64,000 nt of DNA, taken from the NCBI GenBank assembly GCA_018645265.1, contig JABGOS010000088.1:11083-75082 (forward strand). Reading direction: 5' to 3'. Both the position numbers and the translations under genes were made by a program. Shown here piece by piece: positions 928 through 63,696 of this stretch. This DNA comes from Deltaproteobacteria bacterium (lineage in GTDB: Bacteria > UBA10199 > 2-02-FULL-44-16 > JAAZCA01). The notes beneath the pieces are model-generated. The model was not told the DNA's origin. It did no database searches and saw only the letters and a program-made list of their open reading frames with translations. Position 1 is the first letter of the stretch, and each line of letters opens with the position of its first letter.

Positions 928-940
928 TAATGAGAGGCAC

Positions 941-3061
941 ATGATGAAGATTACTGCACAGAAAATTAAAACCACTGATTTCTCGGACCTTCAGCCAGAA
1001 GCTACTGGACAGGCTCAAGCGGATAACGGAGTCGATACTTCCGATCTCGCAGCCGCGATAGCTGAAATAGAGCAGTTCGAACAGGAAAATTCCGAATGGC
1101 TCTCCGAGGAAAACTTAAGTGAAATGGACCGCATCAAAACCATGCTCGTCGCCGAAAAGGCCGCTATAGAGAACTTCGGCCCGTACGGATCTGGCGGAGC
1201 AGGAGCAGGTGGCGTAGATCCAACACTCTGGGAAATGCCACAGGCATTGGATGCATATTGGAACGGCGTTAATCCTGACCAAATTCTGCAATCCGATGAT
1301 GATGCATCTAGACTCGACGAAGATCCTGCATGGTACGGCGACTACATGGGTACAGTACAGGTTCTAAATAGTGGCGATCCTGCAAACCCGACGAATGTAG
1401 GATTTCAGATGACAGAGGATATGGTCGGTATCTGGGGTGAGTCACGCGGTAGCGATATAGTCGTTACAGTCGAGTACACTGATGGACGCCGTGAGTCATG
1501 GGTAGTCGAGGGCGGTTCTGTAAGAGCTGAGCCTATGATTGTTTCCGGAATTGGCCTCGAAGGCGTCGTTATGGATTTTAGCCGCGTATTTCGTCAGAAC
1601 GGTGATCTCTATCTGCATGGTTCGGATGGTGATGATGAGATCAAGGGTTCACAGAGTGGATGTGGAATTATAGCTTACGCCGGCGATGACATGATATGGG
1701 GTGGTGCTGGTGATGATAGAATCTACGGCGATGAACACTACCTCTATGCTGGTCAGTTTGATCCCAGTTACGGTGGTGCCGATACAGTCTACGGTGGTGC
1801 AGGCAACGATATCCTCTACGGCGGTGGTGGAATTGATACGAACTATTCATCCGACGCAGGTGAGAGCATCAACGAGTTTGATACCGATCCCATCAATGAC
1901 CTGACCACGACACCCCCGGATCCTGCAAGCTGGTCTAGCTCCGATGTATGGGAATACAACTTCGATGAAAGCCAGGACGGCACACTCATCTTTAGAAACC
2001 AGAGCACGGAAGGTTTCGGCGGCGACATCAATATCAATATGGATGGCATGCCCGGATACGACATGGCATTCGGTGATATGGATGCTGACGGAGCATTAGT
2101 CATCACATTCGTAGGCGAGGAAGGTTCATTCAAGGTTAAATATGAAGATTTCTTCAGCGATCAGTTTGGTGCTGACAATCCGATGGATCGCATCGTTAAA
2201 TTAAATCTATACGGTACATCTGGAAATGATATTATAAATTTTGATAAGATCCAGGTAACAAGTCAGGTAATCAACCTTCTCGGCGGAGCTGGCGAAGATA
2301 TTATTCTTGGAACACATAACAAACTTCTCATGGATGGTCTTAAGCCAGACAGTCTCGATAGAAGTCAGAAGAACGGTGCTGGAGTTCTCGCTGGTCATGT
2401 AAATGAAGGCATCTTCGCTGCAGATGATGAAAATCAGTATGGCAAGGATTCTGATGGCAAGGTCGATCTCGCCCAATGGAACGGTTACAAAGCCACGGCA
2501 GAGGATGGACAAATATCGATCAGCGATGATGGCAATGCTGAAACCACAGCAGGAGAGGTTCTCTGTCTCAAGGCACCTGATGGTTATACCCACGGTTATA
2601 TCACCCAGGATCCTTCAACGGGTGACACTATAGTCATAATGGTTAAACCTCAGGCAAGCGGCGATGCAAAGACGATAGTAGTTAGGATCGATGAGAGTCT
2701 TGGCCTAGGATATAATGACATCCTCGTTAAAAATGAAGTCACAACTATAGTTGGAGACGGCGATGTTGAGCAAAGCAGCATGGGTGCTCCATTCACATTA
2801 ACAGCTATAAGCCTCGATCCAAACGACTATGTAATAGAGGGTGGAGCTGGCAAGGATCTTATTTTTGCACCCGAGGGTACCAAGGTAGTTGGCGACGACA
2901 ACGAAGAGGTCGTCTGGGAAGAGGAGTTCAACACCCTTCCAACACCACCGCCAAGCGCACCAACACAGGATACCGATCCAATAGCGCCGGTGGAAGATAG
3001 CGGTTCTGAAAGCGACTCAATTGATGATTCTGGTGGAGATGACGGCAGTCAAACCGTGTAA
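941..3061 (+). CDS. RTX-type hemolysin-like calcium-binding repeat protein, no N-terminal signal peptide, acidic C-terminus
   Basis: Tandem GGxGxDxUx nonapeptides (GGAGDDRIYGD, GGADTVYGGAGNDILYGGGGID, LLGGAGEDIILG, IEGGAGKDLIF). Start moved to ATG 941, which has a GAGAGG RBS at 931-936 and is in frame with the track ORF 866..3061. The C-terminal 60 aa are Pro/Asp/Ser-rich and acidic. Confidence 0.6.
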   Translation: MMKITAQKIKTTDFSDLQPEATGQAQADNGVDTSDLAAAIAEIEQFEQENSEWLSEENLSEMDRIKTMLVAEKAAIENFGPYGSGGAGAGGVDPTLWEMPQALDAYWNGVNPDQILQSDDDASRLDEDPAWYGDYMGTVQVLNSGDPANPTNVGFQMTEDMVGIWGESRGSDIVVTVEYTDGRRESWVVEGGSVRAEPMIVSGIGLEGVVMDFSRVFRQNGDLYLHGSDGDDEIKGSQSGCGIIAYAGDDMIWGGAGDDRIYGDEHYLYAGQFDPSYGGADTVYGGAGNDILYGGGGIDTNYSSDAGESINEFDTDPINDLTTTPPDPASWSSSDVWEYNFDESQDGTLIFRNQSTEGFGGDININMDGMPGYDMAFGDMDADGALVITFVGEEGSFKVKYEDFFSDQFGADNPMDRIVKLNLYGTSGNDIINFDKIQVTSQVINLLGGAGEDIILGTHNKLLMDGLKPDSLDRSQKNGAGVLAGHVNEGIFAADDENQYGKDSDGKVDLAQWNGYKATAEDGQISISDDGNAETTAGEVLCLKAPDGYTHGYITQDPSTGDTIVIMVKPQASGDAKTIVVRIDESLGLGYNDILVKNEVTTIVGDGDVEQSSMGAPFTLTAISLDPNDYVIEGGAGKDLIFAPEGTKVVGDDNEEVVWEEEFNTLPTPPPSAPTQDTDPIAPVEDSGSESDSIDDSGGDDGSQTV

Positions 3062-19578: not shown

Positions 19579-22500
19579 TCAAGCAGGGGTATTCCTTTTC
19601 TTCCTTGAAATTACCCTTGTAGTCATGAGCATCAGCAACGAACCTAGGAGGTAGATTATGCTGGTCGAGCTTCCTGCTGCCTGTCCAGCGATCAGTGAAC
19701 AACCTTCGCGGCTCCACGTCTTCGCGTAGTTCGCGGGGTTACCACCTACCTCGTATCCATCAGGCTGACCGTCGCCATCGGAATCGGCATTTGTCGGATC
19801 AGATTCCAACCAGTTTCCTTTACCATCCTGATCGCGCTTACCGTTACAGTTTAGATCCTCACCAAGTCCGCTTGAAGATGTGAAACCATCTGTCAATCCG
19901 TCTTGATCTGTATCCATCTCGAGTGCGTTCGTTTCGGAACCCATATCGAAGACACCATTCTGGTTCTTATCTTCGCCGAGACTTACTGTTCCATCGGACA
20001 GAGTCATCGGTCCATCAGGAATACAGTCACCATCGGTATCGATATTCGTTGCGTCCGTGCCGTATTTGAGCTCGAACCCATCGTTCAATCCATCATGATC
20101 CGTATCTGCTTCGAAAGGATCCGTCTCACTCAAGTTAGGCTCGTACGTACAGTTATGATTGATATCCTCATCACCATCCCAGACACCATCACCATCAGTA
20201 TCCGGATTCTGAGGATCTGTTCCTAGATCCTGCTCACAGAGATCCGTTAGTCCATCGCTGTCGGAGTCTTTGCCACCAGGGGCACCTTCTCCACCAACAC
20301 AGTTAGGATTGTCATTGAGTCTACAACCAGCTTCTTCTTCAGAATCTTTATTATTGTCAGCATCGGAATCGCGCATACATGGGTTGGAACCATTCCACTC
20401 AACCATGCTTCCGTTATATTCCTCAGCATCCTTCAGACCATCGTTATCGGAGTCCTTCGAACGTGGGTTCGATACCATCGGTATACCACCGATATTGTCC
20501 CAGATCTCTCCATCGATGATCTTCGTCAGGAAGGCCTGTCCTACTACCAAGTCACCAGTTACTTCGACGCCATCCTCAAGGCCATCACCATCCGTATCCT
20601 TGTTCGTAGGATCGGTATCCTGCATCATAGCATCTATACATCCCTCGGATCCCATCTGGTTCAGGTTCACGAGGTTGAAGCCAGGCTGGCCATCACGGTT
20701 CTCTTCACCATCTGGCAGGCCATCACCGTCTGTATCAGCATTACGCGGGTTCGTGTAGATCGGCATTCCATCGCCATTGACCTTCACATGAGTGTTGGTC
20801 TCAGCGAAATCATCTGCACCATCATCATCTGAATCAGCCTTCAGAGGATTCGTTTCAATCAGTGCCAATGCATCCATCGTAATGGCACCCTGAGAGTTGT
20901 CGTTACCATCGAAGCCCATGCCATCAAGATTCTTATCCTCTTGAGCATCGTACAATTCATCCTGATCGCGATCGATGAAGAATGCGAGCACCCTTCTGAT
21001 AGGATCATCAGCGTAGACACTCTTGAAAGGATCACAGCTGTAGTCGACATAAGGATTCTTGTCAGGGCTGTATTCATCGCTCGTGCTACCTGTTGCTGCA
21101 CTTTCAGGACATACATCGATGTTATCAGCAACTGTATCACCATCGGAATCAGCATCCCAGTACTTCAGCATCTGAGACTGAGGTGTCGTACCAGCAGCAT
21201 TCGTTGAATCACACTCTAATGTTGGCTGCTCTACACAATCCGGAATACCGTCACCATCGACATCACCCTGGCAGATACCCATGAGCTGCTCTCTTGTGAG
21301 ACCGTCGATCTCGAATAGATCTGGAACACCGTTCGTATCGTCATCTTTGAGCGCCACCGGCGAACCATCAAGTTCATCCCAGTATACGTACTCGGCATCG
21401 ATACCCCAGAGGATATCCTTAGGATGACATTTATTCTCCTTTTCACATTCCTTTACCTGATCTGCTATGGTAGTAGCAGTTGGTGTTGCATGGAGAGGAC
21501 ACATGTCAACGCCTCTTGGCGTCTTAGTGGTCGAATCGCAAGTAAAGGAAGCTGTCGGTACTGGGATTATGGTAAGATCAACATCTGCATTGATTGTACA
21601 TGTCTTCACACATCCGCCATCCTTGCCAGTTCCACTATTACCACCACCATCACACCAGTGATCACCATCTGAATCCGACTTCCATGGATTCATCTCGTTA
21701 TTATCTATATCAAGGTCACCGTCGAAGTTCGCACGATCACCCAAGCTTCTATTGCGACACATCAGCATCTGTAGGCGTCTCTCCGTCAACTCATCAACAA
21801 CCTCTGCGCCTGAACTGATGTCACCCCAATTACCCTGCTTCGGATCTTCATAGTACGTATCACAGTATGGATCATCCTTAGCACAGGTTACAATGTACCA
21901 CATATATCTGACACCGGTCTTACTCTCATTGCCTGAGCCCAAAGTACACTCGATTGGCTTCTGAGTAGTCTTGCTCTTAATAGGACTGCGAGTATCATAA
22001 GACCCGCCAAACTTGTAGAGCACGCCCTTCGTAACCGAGGTACCTACGCCGGTGAAGAAATGCTGGTTGCGATCTTCCTGGCCATCCCACACTCCATCAT
22101 TATCACTATCTTTATCTAGAACGTTCGGCTGGCCATCACCATCACTATGTTCAGTCATCGTCTCTTTGCCTACGCCATCTGGAATACCATCACCATCTGT
22201 ATCAGGCTCGTAGAAGTTAGTTTCCTTACCTTCATCCCACACGCAATCGCGATCGAGATCCTCATCATCATCCGGCAGACCATCGCTATCGGTATCAAAT
22301 CCCTTAGCTAGACCACCGCCCGTACCCCTGCTCGCTGCATCTGGAATTTTTCTTACGTCACGACAATGCGCGTAACCTGTCATTACATTGGAACCACCAC
22401 TACCCTTGCCACTGAGCGAACCAAATGGAGAGGAAATGTTTACATCCGGACACTGAATGTCAGGATCGTTTTCTGTAGAAGTGATATGAATGATCTTGCT

Positions 22501-23730
22501 CGCCTGACCAACGCCACCGCCGTTCATTTCAGGAACCAATATTATTCTTGAGAAATCGACCGGGACATTAATGCGGAAAGTTCCTGTGGTATTGTCCATA
22601 CCATAATCAACCGCCTTACCTACAAATGCGATCAACTCACCATCTTCCTTAGCAGTTCCACTCTGTGATTTTCCACCAATGGAGTAGACCTGAAGAGCAC
22701 TCAAACCACCGGCAGCTTCATCGGGACAGCTGTCATCGCTCAAACCTTCAACATTAGCAATGTAGCCCTCTATGATTATCGATGATGGAGTTTCATCACC
22801 TGGTTCATAGATAGCACTCTTATCAATAATTCTTACCTGGTACGGCTGCTTCGATGAAATCCAATCTTCAGAACTCTTAAGCTGTGTAATCGAAAGTCTT
22901 GCACCTGTAGAGAGATACATAAAACCATCATCATCCACTGAACTGATTGTGCCTGCGTTAGGAAGGATAAGGTTATTTGCTGACTCTCCAGGGTTATCAA
23001 AGACGATACCACTGTTTTTCGTATTTCTTAAGCTACAGTCAGAGTAAATGACGTTACCAGCAGCTGTCGGACTCATATAGAATCCATCATCTCCACCGTT
23101 AACCTCAACGTGACTGGCAGAGCTATCGTTTCCATAGAAACAAACACCCTTCATCCCATCCGGGATATTCTGAATTTCGAGGTTTTGAATCTCGACCCAG
23201 TCAACGTCCTCTTCTATTATAACCACGCAATCAAATCCCGATGGAATCTCAGCAGCATCGAGGACGGTTCTCTTTCTCTCCGTCACCTCATTGATACAAG
23301 CGCCTGCATCATCCGTCTCATAGCAGACCGTCTCCTCATCCCATGTATCACACGTACCATCGCCGTTGGAATCGTTGAGACATCCGCCGCTTATAACGAC
23401 GTGATGATCGTTCGATCCATCAGCCCTTATAACGAGAGGACCTTTCATGGCGATCCGCTCCTCCGCAATGGCAATCATCTCGCCACATGCGTAGTGCTGG
23501 CTGGTCGGCCCAAGGTTTGCGGAGTGCATTGCGACAGGCAACGTCAGCTTATTCTTATTGCCCGACTTTGCATCCCACTGACTGCTGGTGACCGTACAGC
23601 TCTTCACACTCATGTGATTATACTTGAAGCCTGCGTCGGCTCTAGATGAAATCACAATGGTGAGCGCGAAGACGACTATCGCCAGCGTTATCATGTTTCG
23701 TGATTTTACGTTATGCATGGTTTCCTCCAA
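19579..23730 (-). CDS. Giant (1383 aa) secreted calcium-binding protein with ~25 thrombospondin type-3-like Asp repeats and a C-terminal Cys-containing sorting-like tag
   Basis: Signal peptide. Reiterated DTDGDGxPD, DSDNDGxxD and DTDHDGLND units. The C-terminus reads GCSLIAGQAAGSS, then a hydrophobic helix IIYLLGSLLMLM, then RVISRKKR. Confidence 0.7.
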   Translation of the reverse strand: MEETMHNVKSRNMITLAIVVFALTIVISSRADAGFKYNHMSVKSCTVTSSQWDAKSGNKNKLTLPVAMHSANLGPTSQHYACGEMIAIAEERIAMKGPLVIRADGSNDHHVVISGGCLNDSNGDGTCDTWDEETVCYETDDAGACINEVTERKRTVLDAAEIPSGFDCVVIIEEDVDWVEIQNLEIQNIPDGMKGVCFYGNDSSASHVEVNGGDDGFYMSPTAAGNVIYSDCSLRNTKNSGIVFDNPGESANNLILPNAGTISSVDDDGFMYLSTGARLSITQLKSSEDWISSKQPYQVRIIDKSAIYEPGDETPSSIIIEGYIANVEGLSDDSCPDEAAGGLSALQVYSIGGKSQSGTAKEDGELIAFVGKAVDYGMDNTTGTFRINVPVDFSRIILVPEMNGGGVGQASKIIHITSTENDPDIQCPDVNISSPFGSLSGKGSGGSNVMTGYAHCRDVRKIPDAASRGTGGGLAKGFDTDSDGLPDDDEDLDRDCVWDEGKETNFYEPDTDGDGIPDGVGKETMTEHSDGDGQPNVLDKDSDNDGVWDGQEDRNQHFFTGVGTSVTKGVLYKFGGSYDTRSPIKSKTTQKPIECTLGSGNESKTGVRYMWYIVTCAKDDPYCDTYYEDPKQGNWGDISSGAEVVDELTERRLQMLMCRNRSLGDRANFDGDLDIDNNEMNPWKSDSDGDHWCDGGGNSGTGKDGGCVKTCTINADVDLTIIPVPTASFTCDSTTKTPRGVDMCPLHATPTATTIADQVKECEKENKCHPKDILWGIDAEYVYWDELDGSPVALKDDDTNGVPDLFEIDGLTREQLMGICQGDVDGDGIPDCVEQPTLECDSTNAAGTTPQSQMLKYWDADSDGDTVADNIDVCPESAATGSTSDEYSPDKNPYVDYSCDPFKSVYADDPIRRVLAFFIDRDQDELYDAQEDKNLDGMGFDGNDNSQGAITMDALALIETNPLKADSDDDGADDFAETNTHVKVNGDGMPIYTNPRNADTDGDGLPDGEENRDGQPGFNLVNLNQMGSEGCIDAMMQDTDPTNKDTDGDGLEDGVEVTGDLVVGQAFLTKIIDGEIWDNIGGIPMVSNPRSKDSDNDGLKDAEEYNGSMVEWNGSNPCMRDSDADNNKDSEEEAGCRLNDNPNCVGGEGAPGGKDSDSDGLTDLCEQDLGTDPQNPDTDGDGVWDGDEDINHNCTYEPNLSETDPFEADTDHDGLNDGFELKYGTDATNIDTDGDCIPDGPMTLSDGTVSLGEDKNQNGVFDMGSETNALEMDTDQDGLTDGFTSSSGLGEDLNCNGKRDQDGKGNWLESDPTNADSDGDGQPDGYEVGGNPANYAKTWSREGCSLIAGQAAGSSTSIIYLLGSLLMLMTTRVISRKKRNTPA

Positions 23731-23777: not shown

Positions 23778-24911
23778 TTAGAATACAAACTGCAGAGTGG
23801 CTCCGCCACCGATGCCACCGCTGATCTGTCCCTGATGTCCATTGACATCTGAGTCTGTCGCTTCAAGAACGCTTCTCTCTGAAAAACCTGCGATCGGTAC
23901 ATCGAAGAATACATTACCCATGAGCCTTATGGCCGAGAGAATATCCTCCACACCACCGGTGTTGATCTGGATGCCGGCTGCGAGCATGAATCCGAGAATA
24001 CCGCGTCCCTGCTGTATCGGACCTGTCGCCGTACTGGCGAGATTTGCATATTCACCACCGAGATGGAACTGAGCACCAACTACGAGTGAAACAGAATCAT
24101 GGACCGGGATTACAGGTTCGAGACCTACAAATGCGGTTCCTCTGAAGCCAGCCTTCGGTTCGCTATCTACTGCACCGTTCGATGACATGATGCGGCTGGA
24201 GATAGGAATTCCTAGCAATGCACCGTATGAGAGGAAGAGACCTGAATGCTGCTGTGGCTTTCCCCACATCATAAGGCGACGTCTTCCCTCAAGGCTGATT
24301 TGAACCATGTGGCTAACTGCTCCACCGTCTCCACCCAAATCGCCCATATAGGACATATCACTGAAATCTCCATCGGTACCCTGGACCCATCCGCTACCGC
24401 TGTATCCATAACCAAGGCCCAAAACAAACTGATGCTCATCTACCTTGTCGGCATCTTTCGGTGTCGCTTTGCATGATTTGGAAGCAGCATCAAAAGTTTC
24501 ATCGCTATCACAAGGCTTACATACGCCCGCATCCACTTTCTTGCCTTCAAGAGCACACTCATCAGCAGTCTTCGGCTTCGGTGCGGCCATATCTTTTTCG
24601 ACATCGGCACGCTTCGGCAATGATGGAGCACTTGCCATACCATAAAAGCCAGACATTCCCTTGAACATCGGCAATGGAAGCTTGCCTGTGTGCATCTGGA
24701 AATAATCCTCACACTTAGCTGCGATAGGGGTGCCCTTCGTATGCCCTATGGTGCCGAGAAATTCGGACCAATCCTTCCCTGTGGCATCACCAGCATCAAA
24801 CATCTGTTGATCTGTATCTACCATTGAGCATCTAAATGTGATGCCATCCTTGAAATCCTGACACGCTTTGGTTGTACAACTCTTTAGTGTTCCGTCGCCT
24901 GCTGAAAACAT
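23778..24911 (-). CDS. Cys-rich protein with OMP-like beta-barrel C-terminal half (ends ...GGATLQFVF); no detectable signal peptide
   Basis: Strong RBS (AAGGAGG 7 nt before the ATG). The C-terminal 200 aa have alternating hydrophobic strands and a terminal Phe. Sits immediately upstream of the giant gene on the same strand with a 47-nt gap. Confidence 0.45.
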   Translation of the reverse strand: MFSAGDGTLKSCTTKACQDFKDGITFRCSMVDTDQQMFDAGDATGKDWSEFLGTIGHTKGTPIAAKCEDYFQMHTGKLPLPMFKGMSGFYGMASAPSLPKRADVEKDMAAPKPKTADECALEGKKVDAGVCKPCDSDETFDAASKSCKATPKDADKVDEHQFVLGLGYGYSGSGWVQGTDGDFSDMSYMGDLGGDGGAVSHMVQISLEGRRRLMMWGKPQQHSGLFLSYGALLGIPISSRIMSSNGAVDSEPKAGFRGTAFVGLEPVIPVHDSVSLVVGAQFHLGGEYANLASTATGPIQQGRGILGFMLAAGIQINTGGVEDILSAIRLMGNVFFDVPIAGFSERSVLEATDSDVNGHQGQISGGIGGGATLQFVF

Positions 24912-25266
24912 AATTACCTCCTTGAAATCTTTTTCCCCCGAAAAAGAATGAAGTGACTATTGTCCATTATCCTCCATCTTCATTATCGAACTTAGACGTA
25001 AAAAGTTGCTGGTTTTTTTATCGGTTTTTTTTGGAACTTCAGAAGCGCCCAAATAGGATAAAAAGGACGCTATATCATTAATCATTACATATACTTACAA
25101 AATATGCATTATTTCGGAGCTTTGCATATTTTTTTTGAAAATATCTATTTTTTTCTCCATGAAGAAATTTTTTATTAATTTTACCGAACACATTTTTTGA
25201 TATATTTAGCATTATATAAACGCTCTATACCCAGCCCATCTTCGTCATTTCTCCCAATTTGTTGCT

Positions 25267-25289
25267 AAAAAAGTGTCCGACACTTTTTT
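25267..25289. repeat. REP-like palindromic element copy 1 (AAAAAAGTGTCCGACACTTTTTT)
   Basis: Exact core GTGTCCGACAC flanked by an A-run and a T-run. Lies upstream of the RAYT gene. Confidence 0.75.
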
Positions 25290-25426
25290 GCTGCACATTG
25301 ACCACTTTTCATACACCTACAAGATTCATATCATTGATATATATGGGTTTTTTATGGAATAAATATTGCTCTCTCACATCTCAAATATCAATCGTAACAC
25401 CTATCCAGGAGGTTATTTTGACCAGA

Positions 25427-26029
25427 ATGCCACTTATCCATATCCCGGGGGGTCTCTACTCTGTGGTCAGCAAATGCAATAACAATGAATTTTTGTTCGA
25501 CTCTAAGGATAAATTCGAGCTGTATCTCAGGCATTTAATGGAGTGTAAGAAAGTGCAAGGCTTCAAGATCTACGATATCGTATGCATGTCGAACCATGTT
25601 CATGAACTGTATGAAGTGCCTGAAAAAGTAACTATCGCTAAAATTCTGCAGCGAGTTAAGGGTAGTTTTGCCATAAAATTCAACGTTATTTACAAGAGAA
25701 GCGGTCATTTCTGGAAGAACAAACCATTTTATAGGGTGGTTGAAGATGAGGAGCACGCCATCGCATGCATCAACTATTTCCACGAAAACCCCACAAGGGC
25801 AGGTATGGTGCTGCATCCATCCCTATGGCCCTTCTCCGGATATAACTTCCATGTACATGGTGATCGAACAGGCCTGATAGGAAAGCTACTTGACCCACTA
25901 CCCGGCTACAGCGAATTCTCGCCATTTGATGAGATGAAGATAGATGTTGAAAAGGTCCTAGGCTCTAAAAAACATAAATTTTTAGGCAGCTCTATCTTTC
26001 AGGAATCTATGAAAACAAAGTACAAATGA
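25427..26029 (+). CDS. IS200/IS605-family HUH/Y1 transposase, REP-associated tyrosine transposase (RAYT)-like
   Basis: HuH motif (MSNHVHEL) and a Tyr motif followed by NP.RAG (YFHENPTRAGMV). AGGAGG at 25407-12. The track ORF 25259.. extends 5' across the REP copy and an AT-rich tract, which is unlikely to be coding. TTG at 25418 is an alternative start. Confidence 0.65.
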   Translation: MPLIHIPGGLYSVVSKCNNNEFLFDSKDKFELYLRHLMECKKVQGFKIYDIVCMSNHVHELYEVPEKVTIAKILQRVKGSFAIKFNVIYKRSGHFWKNKPFYRVVEDEEHAIACINYFHENPTRAGMVLHPSLWPFSGYNFHVHGDRTGLIGKLLDPLPGYSEFSPFDEMKIDVEKVLGSKKHKFLGSSIFQESMKTKYK

Positions 26030-44228: not shown

Positions 44229-45881
44229 TTACAGATACTTAAGACTTGGAATGATTTTACGAGATCCGTAAAATAGGATACAAGGCATGATGAACATGAA
44301 AACAATATAAAGATATATCGATAAATTTGACTTCGATCTTACGTCATTGGCTATAAACGAACACGCCCCCCCATCCGCAGCGCCTGCGAAATGACCGCTG
44401 CCCCCAGCGCTCGTCTTCTCTTCAGGACTCTGAGCAGGTGAACCACCCCCTCCTCCGCCAGCAGCTACATCGTCTGGACAGACTTTCGTCTTGGGGTCGT
44501 AGACATCCGGTATCCCATTTGTATTCGCATCGAGCCATCCCCCCTCCATGAGATCGGGACATGAATCACCATCCGAGTCACCATCCCTGGCATTCGAAAC
44601 ACCATCACAATCGATATCGGTTAGCATTTCTGGTGAAGAACATTCACCCTCTCCAATAACCATTCGATAATCGAAATCCGGTATACCATCCCCATCAAAA
44701 TCACCCAGAGTTTCGACACCATCGCTTAAGCCGTCGGAATCTGTATCGACTATCGAGGGATCGCTCTCATTGTGATCGACCCAACCATTTGCATTTAAAT
44801 CCTCCAGACCATCCTCCAGGCCATCGCCATCGGAATCCGGATTGAGAGGATTCATCTCGTTAGGTTTTTTAAAATTCGTTCCGGATGGCTGAAGGCCATG
44901 GCATCCGTTGTATGATATCGGCTGGATCCTTCCCATCTCCACCCCATCAGACAGGCCATCACCATCGGTATCGCATTCATTTATGAGAGTACCTGCTCGA
45001 ACCTCGTCACCATCGGAGACACCATCACCATCCGAATCAGCCCTGATAGGATCAGATTCAGATGAACCGTTTATCTCACCATCTCCATCGCGATCCCCTT
45101 CCTCACCATCTAGAAGGCCATCGTTATCTGAATCAGGATTCAATGGGTCCATCTCCAGCCAAATGACATGTTCCTCATCCTCAGTAAGTTCACCATCACG
45201 AAGACCATTGAAATTAGGGTCTTCAAGTCCATCAACAACTCCATCATCATCGGTATCGTCGAGACTTGGATCGGTCATACTGCTGACGTCGAGGTCGAAC
45301 AGCGCGGCTACGTTATGAATACCTGGCAAAGAATCATCATATGAAATTACATTTTCAAATGCCGACACTAGATTGTCATCCAATATTTTTTTACAGCGCG
45401 ATGTCGGAATATACTTAGGGCGACTTGGCATACGATCAATCAGTTGCAGCAGTTCTTCCTTCGTAACCCCCACCTCGACACCGTCAGGAATACAGTCACC
45501 ATCGGAATCACTTTTTAGAGGATCGAGTCGATCTGGAAAGCGAATGCGAACTTCTTCATTACCCAAAAGCTCTTCCACCCTGCCAATATGAAGGCGCTCC
45601 TCACCATCGCTCAAGCCATCTGCATCGGAATCTGGATTGTTTAAATCTGTCTCACCATTTTCAGGCTCCCAAACTCCGTCACCATCATGGTCCTCAGCCT
45701 CATCTAGCAGACCATCGCAGTCGGCATCCATGTTACAACCATCACTCTCAACCGTAGCGGGTTCACCATCAGCCGCAAATGCATCGGGAACAATAGATAA
45801 GGAGAGAACAATAAGACCCACCACAATAAGCAGCGCAACGTTATGGCCAATAAAGACCATTATTTTAATAGCTCTATTCAT
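44229..45881 (-). CDS. Secreted calcium-binding protein with thrombospondin type-3-like Asp repeats (550 aa) and C-terminal Cys-containing sorting-like tag
   Basis: Signal peptide. Repeats DSDADGLSDG, DTDDDGVVDG, DSDGDGLEDG and DTDSDGLSDG. A Gly-rich spacer is followed by GGACSFIAN, then TM IYLYIVFMFIMPCILFY, then GSRK. Confidence 0.65.
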   Translation of the reverse strand: MNRAIKIMVFIGHNVALLIVVGLIVLSLSIVPDAFAADGEPATVESDGCNMDADCDGLLDEAEDHDGDGVWEPENGETDLNNPDSDADGLSDGEERLHIGRVEELLGNEEVRIRFPDRLDPLKSDSDGDCIPDGVEVGVTKEELLQLIDRMPSRPKYIPTSRCKKILDDNLVSAFENVISYDDSLPGIHNVAALFDLDVSSMTDPSLDDTDDDGVVDGLEDPNFNGLRDGELTEDEEHVIWLEMDPLNPDSDNDGLLDGEEGDRDGDGEINGSSESDPIRADSDGDGVSDGDEVRAGTLINECDTDGDGLSDGVEMGRIQPISYNGCHGLQPSGTNFKKPNEMNPLNPDSDGDGLEDGLEDLNANGWVDHNESDPSIVDTDSDGLSDGVETLGDFDGDGIPDFDYRMVIGEGECSSPEMLTDIDCDGVSNARDGDSDGDSCPDLMEGGWLDANTNGIPDVYDPKTKVCPDDVAAGGGGGGSPAQSPEEKTSAGGSGHFAGAADGGACSFIANDVRSKSNLSIYLYIVFMFIMPCILFYGSRKIIPSLKYL

Positions 45882-53878: not shown

Positions 53879-54616
53879 TTATTTCCTCTGAGGCAGGAAA
53901 AATAGGGGATTGCGGGCTTTTTGTCCATTACGAATTTCAAAATGCAGGTGAGGCCCTGTTGATCTTCCGGTCCTCCCAACATACGCGATCACCTGGCCCT
54001 TTTTCACAGTTTGTCCTTTTTTACTCTTATTACTCTTATTATGCGCATACGCCGTAAAAAAATCATCCCCATGCCTGATCAGAATAAGATTGCCATATCC
54101 ACGCATCTTACCGGAAAAAACTACACGGCCCGACCCAGCAGCCTTAATAGGCGTTCCGGATTTCGCCGCTATATCAATTCCATCATGACGCCTCCCCCCC
54201 CTTATTCCAAATGGAGAAGTAAGCTTACCGTCGACAGGCCATATAAACTTGCCATGAAAAGTTTTAATACTCTTGGAACGACTCTTCTTCTTACTACTCT
54301 TTGCATATCTCCTACTCTCCTTAGCTGACATCCCGAGAGGCAATTTCTTATAGCCAGCTGTCTTTTCTTTTGGTGGAAGATAGAGACGCTTTCCGGGCTG
54401 GGCATCGTTGGGGCTAAATATATTATTATATTCAGCAAGCTCCTGAAGATCGACATTGTAAGCCCTTGAGATTCTCCATATGGATTCTCCCGATCTTACA
54501 GTGTGATATTTACCTCGCTTATCAAATGAAGTAGCACATCCAGAGAAGGTCATCGCAACGAAGGTTCCGATGAATAGAATCAGCAGCATGCGCAATGTTA
54601 TTCCAGACCTAGTCAT
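53879..54616 (-). CDS. nlpD: LysM-domain M23 family murein endopeptidase lipoprotein (NlpD-like)
   Basis: Lipobox FSGC. LysM ([19 protein letters not shown]). M23 HxxxD and HxH region (HDGIDIA...HLHFEI). Confidence 0.8.
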
Positions 54617-55391
54617 TCACATTCCACCCCTGATCACCTACTAGTTTTACAAACCTACAATGAGTTACAACCCTTTTATCATATCTCTCGCCCTTCCGGG
54701 TAATCACTTCCAATTTCTGAAGATCCTTATCCCCCACTGGTATTACCAACATTCCACCATCCGTAAGCTGCATCTGCAACGCCTCCGGAACACACGGAGC
54801 ACCAGCCGTAACGATAATTCTATCGAAGGGTGCTTTATCAACCCAACCGAGAGTCCCATCCCCAACTTTCAGACTTATATTTTTATACTTCAAATTCGAA
54901 AGAACCTGCCCGGCCCTACTCGATAGATCGCTCAAGCGTTCAATCGTATACACCTCCTTAGCCAGCTCAGCTAATATCGCCGCCTGATACCCGGAACCTG
55001 TACCTATCTCCAGCACACGTTCTACACCTGTCAGGTGTAGCTCCTCCGTCATCATCGCAACTATCAGAGGCTGAGAAATCGTCTGGCCGAAACCGACCTG
55101 TAACGGACGATCTTCATAGGCCTGATATTCCATTCCAGGGCTTACAAAGAGATGCCTTGGAACTCTACTCATCGCGGCAAGAATTTGATCATCCTTAATC
55201 CCCTTAGGGATAAGTTGCTCAGTGACCATTCGCCGTCTTGCAACCTCGAAAGGGTCCCTCTCTTCACCATAGCGTGTCGAATATTTTTTTTTGCTTATTA
55301 AATTGGCCGTTGATGTTTTATCATCACGTGATTTGGAAGATTCCTTCTTCATGTGATATCGGAGCACGCGTGTTAAAATCTTCTTATCCAT
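54609..55391 (-). CDS. pcm: Protein-L-isoaspartate O-methyltransferase (with ~50-aa basic N-terminal extension)
   Basis: RRRMVTEQL..G.....L.AM..VPRHLFV and SAM motif VLEIGTGSGYQAA. Sits in a surE-pcm-nlpD cluster. Confidence 0.85.
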   Translation of the reverse strand: MDKKILTRVLRYHMKKESSKSRDDKTSTANLISKKKYSTRYGEERDPFEVARRRMVTEQLIPKGIKDDQILAAMSRVPRHLFVSPGMEYQAYEDRPLQVGFGQTISQPLIVAMMTEELHLTGVERVLEIGTGSGYQAAILAELAKEVYTIERLSDLSSRAGQVLSNLKYKNISLKVGDGTLGWVDKAPFDRIIVTAGAPCVPEALQMQLTDGGMLVIPVGDKDLQKLEVITRKGERYDKRVVTHCRFVKLVGDQGWNVND

Positions 55392-58632: not shown

Positions 58633-59400
58633 ATGCTACAACGGATATCTATGACTCTCAAAGTCCATACAAGAAAGACGATAACGTTCATGATACTAAT
58701 CGCGTTATCGTTTTTTTTCTTTTCATGTTCCAGCAAACCTAAGAGCTACGCTGAAAAAAGAATGTTGATGACAGAGAACCTCATCAAGAAGCGAGGCATC
58801 GAAAATCCAAGGATCTTAAAAGCCTTTCAAACAGTACCCAGAGAAGAGTTCGTTCTGCCTAAGTACAAGGAGAAAGCCCATGAAGACATTGAGGTCCCAA
58901 TAGCCTTCGGAGAGACATTAAATAGGCCATATGAAGATGCCGTAATGCTTGCCTCAATGGAGATCGAACCACATCACAAGGTCCTTGAAATCGGCACCGG
59001 CACTGGCTATCACACCGCCCTTCTCTCGCAATTGGCGGATAAAGTGTACACAATTGAAATTGAACCGGAATACGCAAAGAAAGCGAAAAGCAACTTTGAA
59101 AAATTAGGCTATAAGAATATCTTCCCTAAAACCGGCGATGGATTTGCCGGATGGCCTGAATTTGCACCTTTTCACAGGATAGTGATGATGTGCAGCCCTT
59201 CAGAAATCCCCATACCTCTCAAAAACCAGCTTGCAGAAGATGGACTGATGATACTCCCGCTTGGGGGTAGCGAGCGTTTTCAGGAACTTTTCCTATACAC
59301 CAAAAAGAACGGTGAATTAATTAAAGTCAGAAGCATAGCACCGACCACCTTCTCTCCAATGAAGGGCCAGATTCTTGAAATGGAAGACCAGAATCCATAG
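58633..59400 (+). CDS. Protein-L-isoaspartate O-methyltransferase paralogue with N-terminal export/lipoprotein-like signal
   Basis: The Pcm core (FQTVPREEFV, VLEIGTGTGYHTALL) is preceded by a basic n-region, the hydrophobic ITFMILIALSFFFF, then SCSS. Confidence 0.7.
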   Translation: MLQRISMTLKVHTRKTITFMILIALSFFFFSCSSKPKSYAEKRMLMTENLIKKRGIENPRILKAFQTVPREEFVLPKYKEKAHEDIEVPIAFGETLNRPYEDAVMLASMEIEPHHKVLEIGTGTGYHTALLSQLADKVYTIEIEPEYAKKAKSNFEKLGYKNIFPKTGDGFAGWPEFAPFHRIVMMCSPSEIPIPLKNQLAEDGLMILPLGGSERFQELFLYTKKNGELIKVRSIAPTTFSPMKGQILEMEDQNP

Positions 59401-59406
59401 TCCCAC

Positions 59407-60501
59407 TTAAGCCATATTCGGAGCATCTGCTTCAGACTGTTCCTGTGAATTTTTCAATCGATATACATAGACTAATATTTCCGCAATCGCAGCGTAGAGG
59501 TCCTCTGGAATTTCATCGCCAATGTCCAATTCAATCAAAGTCCAAGCAAGTGGGACATTCTCAATAATGGGAATGCCATAATCCTCGGCGTATTCCCTGA
59601 TGGTTTGTGCAAAGAGACGCTGCCCCTTCGCCATAATCTGCGGCGCTGCCATCTCCGAGTCATCATATTTGATCGCTATAGCCAACTCTGTTGGGTTGGT
59701 AATCACCGCATCCGCAGATTTCACTGACTGCTTCGTATCGCTCATCGCTAACTCCTGGTGGAGCTGACGTCTTGCACTCTTTATGAGTGGATCACCTTCA
59801 TCCTGTTTGTACTCCCTCTTCACCTCCTCCTTTGTCATCCTCATCTGTTTTTTATAATTCCACCGCTGAACGAAGAGATCGATAATAGCTATCATAATGA
59901 AGACGATAAAAACCTTCACCAAAAACTCCACAAGGAGCTGTGCGGCAAGCGCGCCAGACTGGTCGGGCGTACCCTTCACAGTCAACACGACTTCCCTCAG
60001 CCTATTGGTCACAACGAGATATGCCAGAAGAAAGATGAGGCTCATCTTTGCTATATTCTTTAAGAGCTCCACAAGGGTCGTAATCTTAAACATATTTTTA
60101 AGATTCTCTATGGCATTTATCCTCTTCATCTGGGGCTTCATCGATTCACCGGTAAAGATAGGACCAACCTGGAAGAAGCCCACTGCTATGGCTACCACGA
60201 TCATAACTATCCCAAATGGTATAACGATTTTCACATAGGTCATAAAATTACTGTGCGCTTGTAGGAATAATGTTTCGACATTCAGATCCGGCCTTGAGAT
60301 CAAATTGAAATTGGAGGTCAGCACTCCACGCAGCTGCTCACCGATATACCCCCTCATGAAGAGTATCGTTATGAATGCCGCTATAAGGATTACTATAGTG
60401 TTGAGATCGCGGGATTTTGCGACCTGTCCCTTCTTTCGCGCATCCCGCAGCCGCTTCGGTGTAGCTTCCTCAGTTTTTTCCTGGCTGCTTGATTCTCCCA
60501 T
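59407..60501 (-). CDS. flhB: FlhB/YscU-family type III export apparatus protein (orphan)
   Basis: N-terminal EKTEEATPKRLRDARKKGQVAKS. Four TM segments. The autocleavage-site region reads NPTE in place of NPTH. Confidence 0.75.
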   Translation of the reverse strand: MGESSSQEKTEEATPKRLRDARKKGQVAKSRDLNTIVILIAAFITILFMRGYIGEQLRGVLTSNFNLISRPDLNVETLFLQAHSNFMTYVKIVIPFGIVMIVVAIAVGFFQVGPIFTGESMKPQMKRINAIENLKNMFKITTLVELLKNIAKMSLIFLLAYLVVTNRLREVVLTVKGTPDQSGALAAQLLVEFLVKVFIVFIMIAIIDLFVQRWNYKKQMRMTKEEVKREYKQDEGDPLIKSARRQLHQELAMSDTKQSVKSADAVITNPTELAIAIKYDDSEMAAPQIMAKGQRLFAQTIREYAEDYGIPIIENVPLAWTLIELDIGDEIPEDLYAAIAEILVYVYRLKNSQEQSEADAPNMA

Positions 60502-60684
60502 TCAGTGCTCCTGTATATATTATCGGCAGTGAAGTTACCAAAAATTGCTTCATCCAGCAAGAAATGCCGGCAAAACTGACAAATTGATGTTGCTGACATA
60601 TAAGATTAAATTCTTCTTCATTTTTAGCCCCCCCTGATCGGCCTGGCCTTGCTTTTCTTTAAAAATACCGGTATCTTGCGGCGG

Positions 60685-62742
60685 ATGGCTCAAACGACAC
60701 AAGACAAGCAACCGAGACAGGTAGGCCAGTATTACCTCATGGAGAAGATTGCCCAGGGCGGCATGGCTGAGATCTTCAAGGGGCTCTCCTATGATGTCCA
60801 CGGCATAAAGAAAACGGTTTGTATCAAGAAGATCCTTCCACACATCGCTGCCAGTGAGGAGTTCATCGACTCTCTGATAGATGAGGCGAAGATCGCCGTT
60901 AAACTCGTTCATGGAAACATCGCCCAAACCTATGATCTGGGAAAGGTCGCCGACGACTATTTTATGGTTATGGAATATGTCGATGGCAAGTCACTCTCCC
61001 AAATTCATAAGCGTTGCCTTGCAAAGAAGGAAGTTATACCGATTCATCATCTGGTACACTTTATATCGGAAACTCTCAATGGGCTTGACTATATTCATAG
61101 GAGGACAGATGAGAACGGTCTGCCACTTCATATAGTGCATCGTGACATCAGCCCCCAAAATATAATGGTATCGTATGCAGGTACCGTTAAGATAATCGAC
61201 TTTGGAATAGCAAAGACTGGTTTCAAGGTTGGATCTACCGACTCTGGCATTCTCAAGGGGAAATTCGCATACATGTCCCCAGAGCAGGCACATGGGGATA
61301 CTATAGATCACCGTTCAGATATTTTTTCCTTAGGCATCATACTTCACGAAACGCTGACCGGAAAAAGGCTCTTCAAGGCGGGCGATAGCAGGGAGACAAT
61401 TAGGAATGTGAGGAAGGCAAAGGTCATTCCTCCCTCGGTAATAAGAAATGACCTCCCTGATGAACTTGACCGTATCGTCCTCAAGGCACTCTCAAAGGAC
61501 AGACGACATAGATACAAGAAGGCAGCGGAGATGCACGACGATCTGATAAAGTTTCTATATTCAAATTACCCTGAATTCAGGCCATCGGATGTTGGAACGT
61601 TCGTACAGGATCTTTTTAAGAATGAACTTCAGAACCAGGGCAAGAATGAGGCCGACGCCAAGACACCTTATTTAATCATAGATAGATCAAACTCTGCACT
61701 CGCAGACGATAGTCAATTTGAAGTCACAGGAGCGGCGAAAGCCCCTATCGACCTTGAGGAGTTTATGGTCGAAGAGGATAGTGAATCCGTACCTAAGGAT
61801 ATGGTACCCTATTCCGACAATGAAATGGAGGAATATAGGGATGGACCTGAAATCCCAAAAGAAAGCAAGTTCAAGTACGTATGGGATATTGTAAAACACA
61901 TTAAATATCATCTTTTAGTGATTTTTATAATTGCCATAGTGACTACTCTAGCAGTCATATCCAACAGAAAATCGGAAATTACAGAAGATAATACTGTAGC
62001 TTACACATCAGCAGAAATCATGATCACTACCGAGCCTGCCGATGCATCGATCGTCTTTAACAATAAGCCGATTGGGCAGGGATCCCCTATTACGATGCGA
62101 GATATCGATCCAAATGCTGACCATTTGTTGGTGGTCCAGAAAGAGGGATTCTTCACACACGAAAAACATCTCAATCTAAAACCTGGCGAGTTCTTAAGCC
62201 TCTCCATAGCCCTCAAGCCAAAGCCCCCCATGACATCGGCAATAGAGCTTACAACCATTCCAGAGGGTGCGACAGTTTTTCTGGACAACCGGGAAACTGC
62301 ATACCGCACACCGACAAACATAAAGGATATAGACCCCAAGCGGTCTCATGACATTGGTCTTTTTCTGAGGGGCCATCGTTTTTGGAACAAAAAAATCAAT
62401 CTAAAACCAGGAGAAACAAAATCCTTTGAGATTCAAATGGTCAAAGATTTTGCCACACTCAATGTCGAATCAGAGCCCCCTGGGGCACTCGTCATGCTTG
62501 ATGGCGTTCCAATAGGGCAGACCCCCGTCACAAGGGAAAAACTTGAACCGGATAAGGTTTATAAGGTAGAAGTATGGGTCCAGGGGTATGAGGCAACCAA
62601 GAAGGACTATAAAGCAGTTGCAGGTGTAAAAAAGGGACTTAGGTTCATCCTGAAGAAGATGCCCACACCCGCAGAATTAGAGATGAAGGCTAGGGAAGAG
62701 AAAAGAGAGATGATGCACCAAGAGGAAAAAGATGACCGATAA
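60685..62742 (+). CDS. Hanks-type Ser/Thr protein kinase with TM segment and C-terminal PEGA repeat domains
   Basis: GxGxxA loop (GQGGMAEIFKG), HRDISPQNIMV, DFGIAK, SPEQ. TM segment LLVIFIIAIVTTLAVI. Four or more PEGA-like units (TTEPADASIVFNNKPIGQ...). Start set at ATG 60685. The first 36 nt of the track ORF are probably not coding. Confidence 0.8.
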   Translation: MAQTTQDKQPRQVGQYYLMEKIAQGGMAEIFKGLSYDVHGIKKTVCIKKILPHIAASEEFIDSLIDEAKIAVKLVHGNIAQTYDLGKVADDYFMVMEYVDGKSLSQIHKRCLAKKEVIPIHHLVHFISETLNGLDYIHRRTDENGLPLHIVHRDISPQNIMVSYAGTVKIIDFGIAKTGFKVGSTDSGILKGKFAYMSPEQAHGDTIDHRSDIFSLGIILHETLTGKRLFKAGDSRETIRNVRKAKVIPPSVIRNDLPDELDRIVLKALSKDRRHRYKKAAEMHDDLIKFLYSNYPEFRPSDVGTFVQDLFKNELQNQGKNEADAKTPYLIIDRSNSALADDSQFEVTGAAKAPIDLEEFMVEEDSESVPKDMVPYSDNEMEEYRDGPEIPKESKFKYVWDIVKHIKYHLLVIFIIAIVTTLAVISNRKSEITEDNTVAYTSAEIMITTEPADASIVFNNKPIGQGSPITMRDIDPNADHLLVVQKEGFFTHEKHLNLKPGEFLSLSIALKPKPPMTSAIELTTIPEGATVFLDNRETAYRTPTNIKDIDPKRSHDIGLFLRGHRFWNKKINLKPGETKSFEIQMVKDFATLNVESEPPGALVMLDGVPIGQTPVTREKLEPDKVYKVEVWVQGYEATKKDYKAVAGVKKGLRFILKKMPTPAELEMKAREEKREMMHQEEKDDR

Positions 62743-63658
62743 AAAGAAAAAAGAGATAGATCCACTTCTTCAGAGCGATGAGTTGTCCGAATGCACTGTA
62801 GTAACATCATTGGAGAAGGTAAGTTTTCCAAAGGATGAACGCGCTTACATACTCTTCATTTCAGGCCCCCTAATTGGTAAAATGTACCTTCTTGAAGAAT
62901 CTACAACAATCATGGGCAGGGCTCCGGATATTGATATCTCTATTAGCGATTCAAGAATATCCAGAAAACATCTCTGCATACACCTTGAAACAGGTAAGGC
63001 AATCATTGAAGACATGGGCTCCACCAATGGAACCTTCGTAAACGGTGAGAGGGTTATACGGCGAGTGCTAGAAAATGGCGACAAGGTTCACATATCCAGC
63101 GATACCTTCTTTAAGTTTGCTGTAGGTGATGCGGCAGAAAGAATGTTTCAGGAGGAGATGCACCAGATGGCGAACTACGACGCCGTCACCGGCATACTCA
63201 ACAAACATGCATTCGCAAGACGCCTGAGGGAGGAGTTCAGCTATGCAAGAAGAAGAAAGCACTCCCTCTCACTCATGATGATCGACATAGATTTCTTCAA
63301 GAAGGTCAACGATACATATGGGCATATGGCTGGTGATTATGTCCTAAATGGAGTTGCACAAAGAATCCAAAGCAGCCTTCGTGATGAGGATATTACAGCT
63401 AGATACGGCGGCGAAGAATTTGCAATTATTCTTCGAAATACGGATGCCAAAGACTCGATGATGTTGGCGGAAAGAGTGCGTCATCTGATTGAGGAGAAAC
63501 CCTTCCAATTTGAAGATCAATCGATACCTGTGACAATCAGCGTTGGGGTATCCACACTCAAAGGCGACAACTTCAACTCCGCAAAAAAACTCATTTCTTA
63601 TGCCGATGAGTGCCTATACAAGTCCAAAGCTGATGGAAGAAACCGCGTAACCGCATAA
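62732..63658 (+). CDS. FHA-domain diguanylate cyclase (FHA-GGDEF)
   Basis: FHA core (GR....D.....D..ISRKH...........D.GSTNGTFVNG). GGEEF active site with an upstream RDED I-site-like motif. Overlaps the kinase stop by 11 nt. Confidence 0.8.
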   Translation: MTDKKKKEIDPLLQSDELSECTVVTSLEKVSFPKDERAYILFISGPLIGKMYLLEESTTIMGRAPDIDISISDSRISRKHLCIHLETGKAIIEDMGSTNGTFVNGERVIRRVLENGDKVHISSDTFFKFAVGDAAERMFQEEMHQMANYDAVTGILNKHAFARRLREEFSYARRRKHSLSLMMIDIDFFKKVNDTYGHMAGDYVLNGVAQRIQSSLRDEDITARYGGEEFAIILRNTDAKDSMMLAERVRHLIEEKPFQFEDQSIPVTISVGVSTLKGDNFNSAKKLISYADECLYKSKADGRNRVTA

Positions 63659-63671
63659 ACTATTCTAACAT

Positions 63672-63696
63672 AAAAAGGTGTCCGACACCTTTTTAG
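63672..63696. repeat. REP-like element copy 7 (AAAAAGGTGTCCGACACCTTTTTAG)
   Basis: The longest near-perfect palindrome of the family. Lies between convergent genes. Confidence 0.7.

Follow-up and report, generated by a model that had tools for sequence, protein, structure and literature searches.

Does a receptor-type Ser/Thr kinase switch on the diguanylate cyclase encoded directly behind it? The question is raised by two genes near the end of a 64,000-nucleotide stretch of DNA (the window; positions 11,083 to 75,082 of contig JABGOS010000088.1, assembly GCA_018645265.1) from a Deltaproteobacteria bacterium of an uncultured lineage. The first gene encodes a kinase of the Hanks type. The second encodes a protein with a forkhead-associated (FHA) domain and a GGDEF domain, and its closest structural relative is DgcB of Bdellovibrio bacteriovorus, which set the precedent for a diguanylate cyclase gated by phospho-threonine (PMC6733907). 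The adjacent receptor kinase probably switches the cyclase on. We assign a probability of about 0.6 to the reading that the two genes form a conserved kinase-to-FHA-cyclase module, DgcB-like and with the kinase encoded in cis, in which the kinase would phosphorylate Thr22 (T22) of the cyclase and so activate it.

The gene pair

The two open reading frames (ORFs), at 60685-62742 (685 aa) and 62732-63658 (308 aa), are both intact and both on the plus strand. The features of the locus are:

60685..62742, plus strand: kinase gene, a 685-aa receptor-type Hanks Ser/Thr kinase; the gene call on the source contig gives an identical product length
62722..62742, plus strand: gene junction, with GAGG at 62722-62725, ATG at 62732 and TAA at 62740-62742
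62732..63658, plus strand: cyclase gene, a 308-aa DgcB-like diguanylate cyclase with Thr tail, FHA domain, linker helix and GGDEF domain
63672..63694, no strand assigned: hairpin AAAAAGGTGTCCGACACCTTTTT between convergent genes, noticed by eye in the sequence

The kinase ORF runs from an ATG at 60685 to a TAA at 62740-62742, and an upstream in-frame TTG is found at 60649. The last 11 nt of the kinase ORF overlap the cyclase ORF, whose ATG at 62732 is preceded, 6 nt upstream, by the GAGG, which resembles a Shine-Dalgarno sequence. An overlap of this length between the kinase stop and the cyclase start had been described in a model's earlier reading of the letters alone (the sequence-only reading), and we recovered it at 62732-62742. 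The hairpin is A/U-flanked and folds at -11.4 kcal/mol (z = -4.2, with 0/200 shuffles equally stable as RNA), but was not picked up by a consensus terminator scan. In form it resembles a bidirectional terminator, in which case it would mark the end of the two-gene unit. A sigma-70 promoter scan of the intergenic region between the kinase and the upstream flhB gene stayed at chance level (6 found vs 6.3 expected). The operon structure, with a shared strand, an 11-nt overlap, a Shine-Dalgarno-like GAGG and a terminator-like hairpin only past the second gene, favors the module reading.

A cyclase of the DgcB type

The two domains of the cyclase are placed as follows:

62909..63094, plus strand: FHA domain (Pfam, residues 60-121) with R63, S77, R78, H80, S97, T98 and N99
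63170..63646, plus strand: GGDEF domain (residues 147-305) with the inhibitory site (I-site) R217-D-E-D220 at 63380-63391, G226-G-E-E-F230 at 63407-63421 and D202 at 63335-63337

Pfam detects the FHA domain (PF00498) with an E-value of 4.1e-19 (69.2 bits vs a cut-off of 20.7) and the GGDEF domain (PF00990) with 6.7e-50 (169.4 bits) over the full profile, 1-161. We aligned the window protein with 29 homologues of 49-90% identity (30 proteins in all). The FHA motifs G62-R63, S77-R78-x-H80 and S97-T98-N99-G100 are invariant in this alignment, and the phospho-threonine pocket residues align one-to-one with R61, S75, R76, S95, T96 and N97 of DgcB. The residues for phospho-Thr binding, on which the sequence-only reading depended, are therefore in place. 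Equally invariant are GGEEF 226-230, D185, D187, K190, N193, D194, H198, D202 and R303 of the GGDEF domain, whose roles in metal and GTP binding we take from PleD numbering. The I-site R217-D-E-D220 is followed by I-T-A-R-Y and then by GGEEF (a five-residue spacing); R217 and D220 are invariant in the 30 proteins, and R217 aligns with R218 of DgcB. An N-terminal FHA domain, an intact GGEEF and an I-site-like RDED had all been read from the letters, and Pfam and the alignment agree. Asp202 occupies what we take to be the canonical, non-Hypr position for base specificity, which indicates that the protein is a predicted ordinary cyclic di-GMP (c-di-GMP) synthase. With Asp202 at the specificity position, we rejected a Hypr GGDEF domain, the kind that makes cyclic GMP-AMP.

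The top sequence match in the PDB is full-length DgcB (6HBZ; E-value 3.5e-48, residues 40-307), with 38% identity over 266 columns. The same entry is the best fold match (Foldseek E-value 9.6e-27, 278 columns) for an AlphaFold2 model of the window cyclase, which has a mean predicted local distance difference test score (pLDDT) of 84.6 and an interdomain helix at residues 133-148. The nearest FHA-only relatives in the PDB are GarA and OdhI (E-values 4e-16 to 2e-13), and the GGDEF domain matches the response-regulator cyclases PleD and WspR at about 1e-30 to 1e-33.

DgcB (Bd0742; PDB 6HBZ; Meek et al. 2019) carries its FHA ligand in its own N-terminal tail, which the FHA domain binds once Thr14 is phosphorylated (L-E-K-pT-S-I-V), and the cyclase is activated when the tail is locked onto that domain (PMC6733907). 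The RxxD I-site (R218) dominates as feedback inhibition, and an R218A substitution was used to prevent this inhibition (PMC6733907). The responsible kinase was left unidentified in that study (PMC6733907).

Because its FHA pocket, GGEEF, R217/D220 and tail Thr match those of DgcB, we assign the window protein to the same class; at the level of sequence it shows every hallmark of a DgcB-type tail-FHA-GGDEF cyclase. As architecture, pocket, I-site and tail are all common to the two proteins, the window cyclase is likely to use the same mechanism.

A conserved threonine in the cyclase tail

The tail carries one further feature:

62783..62815, plus strand: tail motif L-S-E-C-T22-V-V-T25-S-L-E, with T22, the predicted phosphorylation site and ligand of the FHA domain, at 62795-62797

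Within an otherwise variable N-terminal tail, T22 is invariant and T25 nearly invariant in the 30 homologues. The pattern [DE]-x-T-[VI]-[VI]-[TS]-x-[IV] was found in 54/54 distinct proteins of the clade. The motif Thr lies 39-42 residues upstream of the FHA GR in 53 of these 54 proteins and 35 residues upstream in the remaining one; the distance is 41 residues in the window protein (T22 to R63) and 47 in DgcB (T14 to R61). The motif fits the E-K-pT14-S-I-V logic of DgcB, with Glu at -2 and a hydrophobic residue at +2, and T22 is predicted to be the equivalent of DgcB pT14 and thus the putative acceptor. In the AlphaFold2 model, residues 1-31 are disordered (pLDDT <50), like the unphosphorylated tail in the crystal of full-length DgcB.

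The kinase

The kinase consists of a cytoplasmic kinase domain, an acidic linker, a transmembrane (TM) helix, three periplasmic PEGA repeats and a charged C-terminal tail:

60736..61518, plus strand: kinase catalytic domain (residues 18-278) with K48, HRD 152-154, N159, DFG 172-174 and S184-T185-D-S-G
61906..61962, plus strand: TM helix YHLLVIFIIAIVTTLAVIS (residues 408-426), the single predicted TM segment
62014..62223, plus strand: PEGA repeat 1 (residues 444-513), from Pfam with boundaries read from the sequence
62239..62448, plus strand: PEGA repeat 2 (residues 519-588), from Pfam
62452..62658, plus strand: PEGA repeat 3 (residues 590-658; best Pfam stretch 590-640)

The catalytic domain matches Pkinase (PF00069) over residues 18-278 (E-value 8.6e-40, 137.2 bits vs a cut-off of 31.7), and its best PDB relatives are PknB kinase domains (about 5e-39). 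All Hanks motifs are there: a Gly-rich Q-G-G-M-A-E, K48, E67, H152-R-D154, N159, D172-F-G and S198-P-E. The catalytic residues are conserved among 32 kinase orthologues, the activation-loop threonine T185 is present, and catalytic-domain identity ranges from 53 to 82% across 29 linked orthologues. With the complete set of motifs in hand, we rejected a pseudokinase.

Residues 408-426 form the only Kyte-Doolittle peak above 1.6 (19-residue window). With this single segment, the predicted topology is a cytoplasmic kinase domain and an extracytoplasmic PEGA region. The intact catalytic core and the one TM helix are as the sequence-only reading had them; its count of at least four PEGA repeats was too high. 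PEGA (PF08308) scores an E-value of 6.9e-29 (100 bits vs a cut-off of 20.8) over three stretches (444-513, 519-588 and 590-658), and the number is unchanged at E<=10, so we rejected a fourth repeat. The ectodomain spans only about 230 residues and for that reason has no space for one.

Conservation of the pair

Is the pairing specific to this contig? From the cyclase side, a gene with Pkinase and PEGA domains lies directly upstream on the shared strand in 8/8 distinct lineages (51-100% identity). From the kinase side, the cyclase is directly downstream of 25/28 informative orthologues. This total combines a metagenome scan with three further long contigs that were looked up. The scan took kinases whose catalytic domain scored at least 330 bits against that of the window in phmmer and that had at least 1 kb of downstream sequence (n = 25), and 23 of these 25 distinct kinases have an FHA-GGDEF gene directly downstream; of the three contigs, two carry the pair and one is an exception. 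Among 17 more distant kinases (252-314 bits), not one has a linked cyclase, although about half of them also match the PEGA-containing C-terminal region of the window kinase. Conservation of the pair as a unit, a point on which the sequence-only reading hung, is thus borne out among relatives.

The usual block in relatives comprises pcm, flhB (divergent), the kinase, the cyclase, folD and gcvTHP. In the relatives L084/L085 the pair is intact, with an 8-nt overlap, though every flanking gene differs: NrfD/molybdopterin oxidoreductase and TatA genes lie on one side and a class A penicillin-binding protein gene on the other. This foreign context argues that the kinase-cyclase linkage is not confined to one syntenic block.

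In a neighbor-joining tree (no bootstrap), the kinase-linked cyclases form one clade, and DgcB and the unlinked proteins fall outside it. A profile scan of genome contigs supplied an outgroup sample, in which the matches listed have at most 44% full-length identity and do not include the window's own clade. In the matches listed, distant FHA-GGDEF proteins of 32-44% identity from Myxococcota, Planctomycetota and others, an orthologous kinase adjoins the gene in L001 alone. Kinase and cyclase distances are correlated across 30 pairs (Mantel r = 0.92, with 0/2000 permutations reaching r), which fits co-evolution.

What varies among relatives

The distance from kinase stop to cyclase start ranges from -47 to +271 nt in relatives. 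The overlap that was proposed as part of the unit is therefore real in the window and not general elsewhere. Neither the ectodomain sequence nor the juxtamembrane linker of the kinase is conserved, and some linked kinases have no PEGA repeat at all:

L001:5576-6961, L126:3977-5314 and L138:3962-5428: PEGA-less linked kinases (Pfam)

These three kinases have 446-489 aa and no PEGA match by Pfam, and the linked kinases L125 and L128 have no match to the PEGA region of the window kinase. T185 within S-T-[DE]-S-G is conserved among the PEGA-bearing kinases. In L001, L126, L125, L128 and L117/L120, the activation-loop S-T-D/E-S-G is replaced by G/M/A-E-K/R/L-G; this is not so in L138. These kinases may be sensor-less and independent of activation-loop phosphorylation. 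Because the overlap, the ectodomain, the PEGA repeats and the activation-loop Thr all vary, the conserved core, as judged from the alignments, is limited to the kinase domain and the tail-FHA-GGDEF protein.

A model for the module

How might the two proteins work together? In the module reading, an extracytoplasmic cue would activate the receptor kinase, presumably via activation-loop T185. The active kinase would phosphorylate Thr22 in the disordered N-terminal tail of the neighboring cyclase, and the cyclase FHA domain would capture the phospho-tail of its own or the partner subunit. Tail binding would then rearrange the dimer to bring the two GGDEF active sites opposite each other for catalysis, and the c-di-GMP made would cap its own synthesis through the RxxD I-site. 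The make-up of the two proteins, their complete active and binding sites, the tail motif, the homology with DgcB and the linkage of the genes are seen directly in the sequences; we infer the phosphotransfer to T22, its activating direction and the input signal from DgcB and from the gene context. In this form, the control of c-di-GMP synthesis through phospho-Thr by the kinase, which the sequence-only reading had predicted, is supported by the conserved linkage and the conserved FHA residues; neither the DgcB precedent nor the cyclase's own tail as the likely substrate figured in that reading.

We consider it possible, at a little under even odds, that the kinase clade and the FHA cyclase are dedicated to each other, one-to-one. 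The pair would then be a Ser/Thr-kinase equivalent of a two-component system whose direct output is c-di-GMP and whose input module is interchangeable; the input modules seen so far are three PEGA repeats in the window kinase and none in some sister lineages.

Several points weigh against the module reading. The residues at +1 and +3 of the tail motif are V and T, vs S and V in DgcB, and T25 is an alternative acceptor. We found no PP2C phosphatase, PilZ, EAL or HD-GYP gene among the window ORFs of at least 150 aa, and the lack of a phosphatase gene in this set counts against the reading. Three to five kinase orthologues have no cyclase (L119, L173, L108/L104 and possibly L123 and L134). L119 keeps flhB upstream and has a flavoprotein gene downstream of the kinase, in L108/L104 the kinase faces a membrane-anchored FHA-only protein, and the two possible exceptions have just under 1 kb of downstream sequence. 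DgcB and FHA-GGDEF proteins of Myxococcota and Planctomycetota carry the tail motif, mostly without an orthologous adjacent kinase among the matches listed; kinase adjacency is consequently not required for tail-FHA-GGDEF enzymes. The Mantel correlation would equally arise through simple vertical co-inheritance. The AlphaFold2 model, which leaves the unphosphorylated tail undocked, may be placed on this side too, but it is uninformative rather than contrary; since the tail is left disordered, the model is silent on docking.

The FHA-only protein of the L108/L104 subclade is divergently transcribed (L108:3148-3804, minus strand; L104:1381-2076, minus strand) and about 200-230 aa long, and it combines a TM helix with a C-terminal part that is TPR-like. 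In this subclade, the gene after the kinase is ComM/Mg-chelatase-like.

Alternative explanations

Mycobacterial PknB-GarA and PknH-EmbR are cases in which FHA proteins dock on phosphorylated kinases. With this precedent, the main ligand of the FHA domain could be the autophosphorylated kinase (at T185 or a linker Thr). The kinase would then bring the cyclase to the membrane, for scaffolding or so that c-di-GMP is made locally, whether or not the tail is phosphorylated. T185 is conserved in the PEGA-bearing kinases, and a stable complex fits the tight gene pairing equally well. We nevertheless regard docking as unlikely, although it survives best among the alternatives. The juxtamembrane linker is not conserved, and the PEGA-less linked orthologues keep the cyclase despite a lost activation-loop Thr. 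In its pure form, docking leaves the invariant tail Thr, with its fixed spacing, without a role, and the FHA ligand observed crystallographically in DgcB is the tail (PMC6733907). Docking and tail capture are not mutually exclusive, as GarA uses both.

A slightly less likely alternative reverses the sign of the switch. As in GarA and OdhI, the unphosphorylated FHA domain would keep the cyclase active or bound to a partner, and tail phosphorylation would close the protein and turn the output off. Binding of the phospho-tail to the FHA domain is auto-inhibitory in GarA and OdhI (cited in PMC6733907), and these two proteins are the nearest FHA-only PDB relatives of the window cyclase (E-values 4e-16 to 2e-13). 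However, a tail-FHA lock (the S15C-S73C disulfide) strongly activates DgcB, the only characterized FHA-GGDEF enzyme, and reduction reverses this effect (PMC6733907). The window cyclase shares its architecture, linker helix and I-site with DgcB.

Improbable, finally, is inherited synteny without direct signaling, in which another kinase modifies the tail and the window kinase has other substrates: the wider block of pcm, flhB, kinase, cyclase, folD and gcvTHP is common to most relatives, Hanks kinases are often pleiotropic, and a few kinase orthologues exist without the cyclase, but the pair survives both in L084/L085, where all flanking genes are different, and next to a five-gene block inserted immediately downstream of it in the window contig, the linkage follows one kinase clade exactly (25/28 inside vs 0/17 outside), one exception couples the kinase to a different FHA protein, and a Ser/Thr kinase adjoining an FHA domain is a functional match and not a random neighbor.

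Neighboring genes and the rest of the window

A convergent gene lies just downstream of the cyclase, on the minus strand from 63693 to beyond 64000, and its part within the window encodes AAA_lid_14 and HTH_8 domains. On the source contig, this is a sigma-54 activator of 467 aa with Response_reg, Sigma54_activat and HTH_8 domains. It belongs to a five-gene minus-strand block between the cyclase and folD, which comprises the sigma-54 regulator, a histidine kinase and three genes without a Pfam match. The block is missing from relatives, where folD follows the cyclase. The sequence-only reading had the position of this gene right, but it is no conserved part of the unit. Because the block was inserted before folD on the window contig, the sigma-54 gene is incidental, and we rejected it as a member of the system.

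On the other side, divergent from the kinase, is a lone flhB (Bac_export_2, 2.2e-115; 59407-60501, minus strand) outside any flagellar operon. In 6 relatives (L081/L082, L083, L088, L089, L119 and L171) it is the gene immediately upstream of the kinase; in L086 and L172 it is 2-3 kb further upstream, past three inserted genes, and it is missing from L084/L085 and L173. The recurrence of this divergent neighbor could hint at a motility-related output, or it may be plain synteny. Two PCMT paralogues (protein-L-isoaspartate O-methyltransferase) are encoded within 5 kb, at 54609-55391 (minus strand) and 58633-59400 (plus strand). The latter has a hydrophobic N-terminal stretch that suggests export or membrane anchoring, and it is conserved beside flhB in relatives.

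Elsewhere the window consists of chromosomal housekeeping genes, with a few other features. A 1383-aa ORF (19579-23730, minus strand) and an adjacent 377-aa ORF (23778-24911, minus strand) have no Pfam match at 1e-5. An IS200-like Y1 transposase ORF (Y1_Tnp, 6.4e-10; 25259-26029, plus strand) sits amid housekeeping genes. Two putative secreted or calcium-binding proteins are encoded, one with RTX nonapeptide repeats (866-3061, plus strand, 731 aa) and one with bacterial TSP3 repeats (44229-45881, minus strand, 550 aa).

Significance

The cyclase adds a member to the DgcB kind, and the conserved kinase in its operon arranges a known mechanism in a new way. The principle itself is not new, as both the mechanism and a version with a fused kinase were already anticipated by the DgcB authors. 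In the searchable literature, which does not cover subscription-only papers, we found neither a later paper naming the DgcB kinase nor any account of an FHA-GGDEF gene that is paired with a PEGA kinase. Within that literature, the Bdellovibrio protein Bd3148 is named by the DgcB paper alone.

The main value of the locus is that it offers a putative kinase and its substrate, ready-made, for the study of how phospho-Thr gates the synthesis of c-di-GMP. The conserved, co-diverging genes define a two-protein system that covers the whole predicted route, in which the Hanks kinase would phosphorylate the tail, the FHA domain would capture it and c-di-GMP would be synthesized. They provide a clean example of cross-talk between Ser/Thr kinase and cyclic-dinucleotide signaling and also supply a kinase clade to look for in Bdellovibrio. 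If the dedicated partnership is true, the DgcB class would gain its first natural pair of kinase and substrate.

Comparison with known systems

Among cyclases controlled by phosphorylation, SiaD of Pseudomonas aeruginosa is similar in that Thr phosphorylation status controls its activity (PMC8457831). The SiaABCD control is indirect, via the adaptor SiaC and a partner-switch kinase/PP2C pair, and is not known to involve a Hanks kinase, FHA domain or tail. PleD and WspR resemble the module in that phosphorylation of an N-terminal module drives productive GGDEF dimerization, and in RxxD product inhibition, but they use a His-Asp phosphorelay via a receiver domain and not Ser/Thr phosphorylation read by an FHA domain.

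GarA and OdhI, with PknB and PknG, share the upstream half of the proposed mechanism: their N-terminal E-T-T-S tail has a Thr that is phosphorylated by a Hanks kinase, and the tail is then bound by the FHA domain of the same protein. Unlike the window cyclase, they lack an enzymatic output domain, phosphorylation turns off their binding to metabolic enzymes, and they do not form a dedicated adjacent kinase-substrate gene pair of the kind seen in the window.

DgcB is the closest match. It has the same order of tail, FHA domain, linker helix and GGDEF domain in about 300 aa (38% identity), an E-x-T motif upstream of the FHA domain, a phospho-Thr pocket that corresponds one-to-one and an equivalent I-site Arg (R218 in DgcB, R217 in the window). 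It differs in that no kinase encoded next to it is mentioned, and a putative phosphatase, bd0740, is reportedly part of its operon (PMC6733907). In addition, DgcB falls outside the kinase-linked clade in the neighbor-joining tree, and its role is in prey invasion, whereas nothing suggests predation in the window organism.

The DgcB authors also cited a fused protein of Sorangium, with kinase, tail-FHA and GGDEF in a single 974-aa polypeptide (PMC6733907), which we compared by description only. It is one polypeptide instead of two genes, and its description mentions neither a PEGA nor a TM receptor part. As in the window pair, however, kinase, tail-FHA and GGDEF are physically linked, and the fusion of these three parts supports a direct kinase-to-cyclase relationship.

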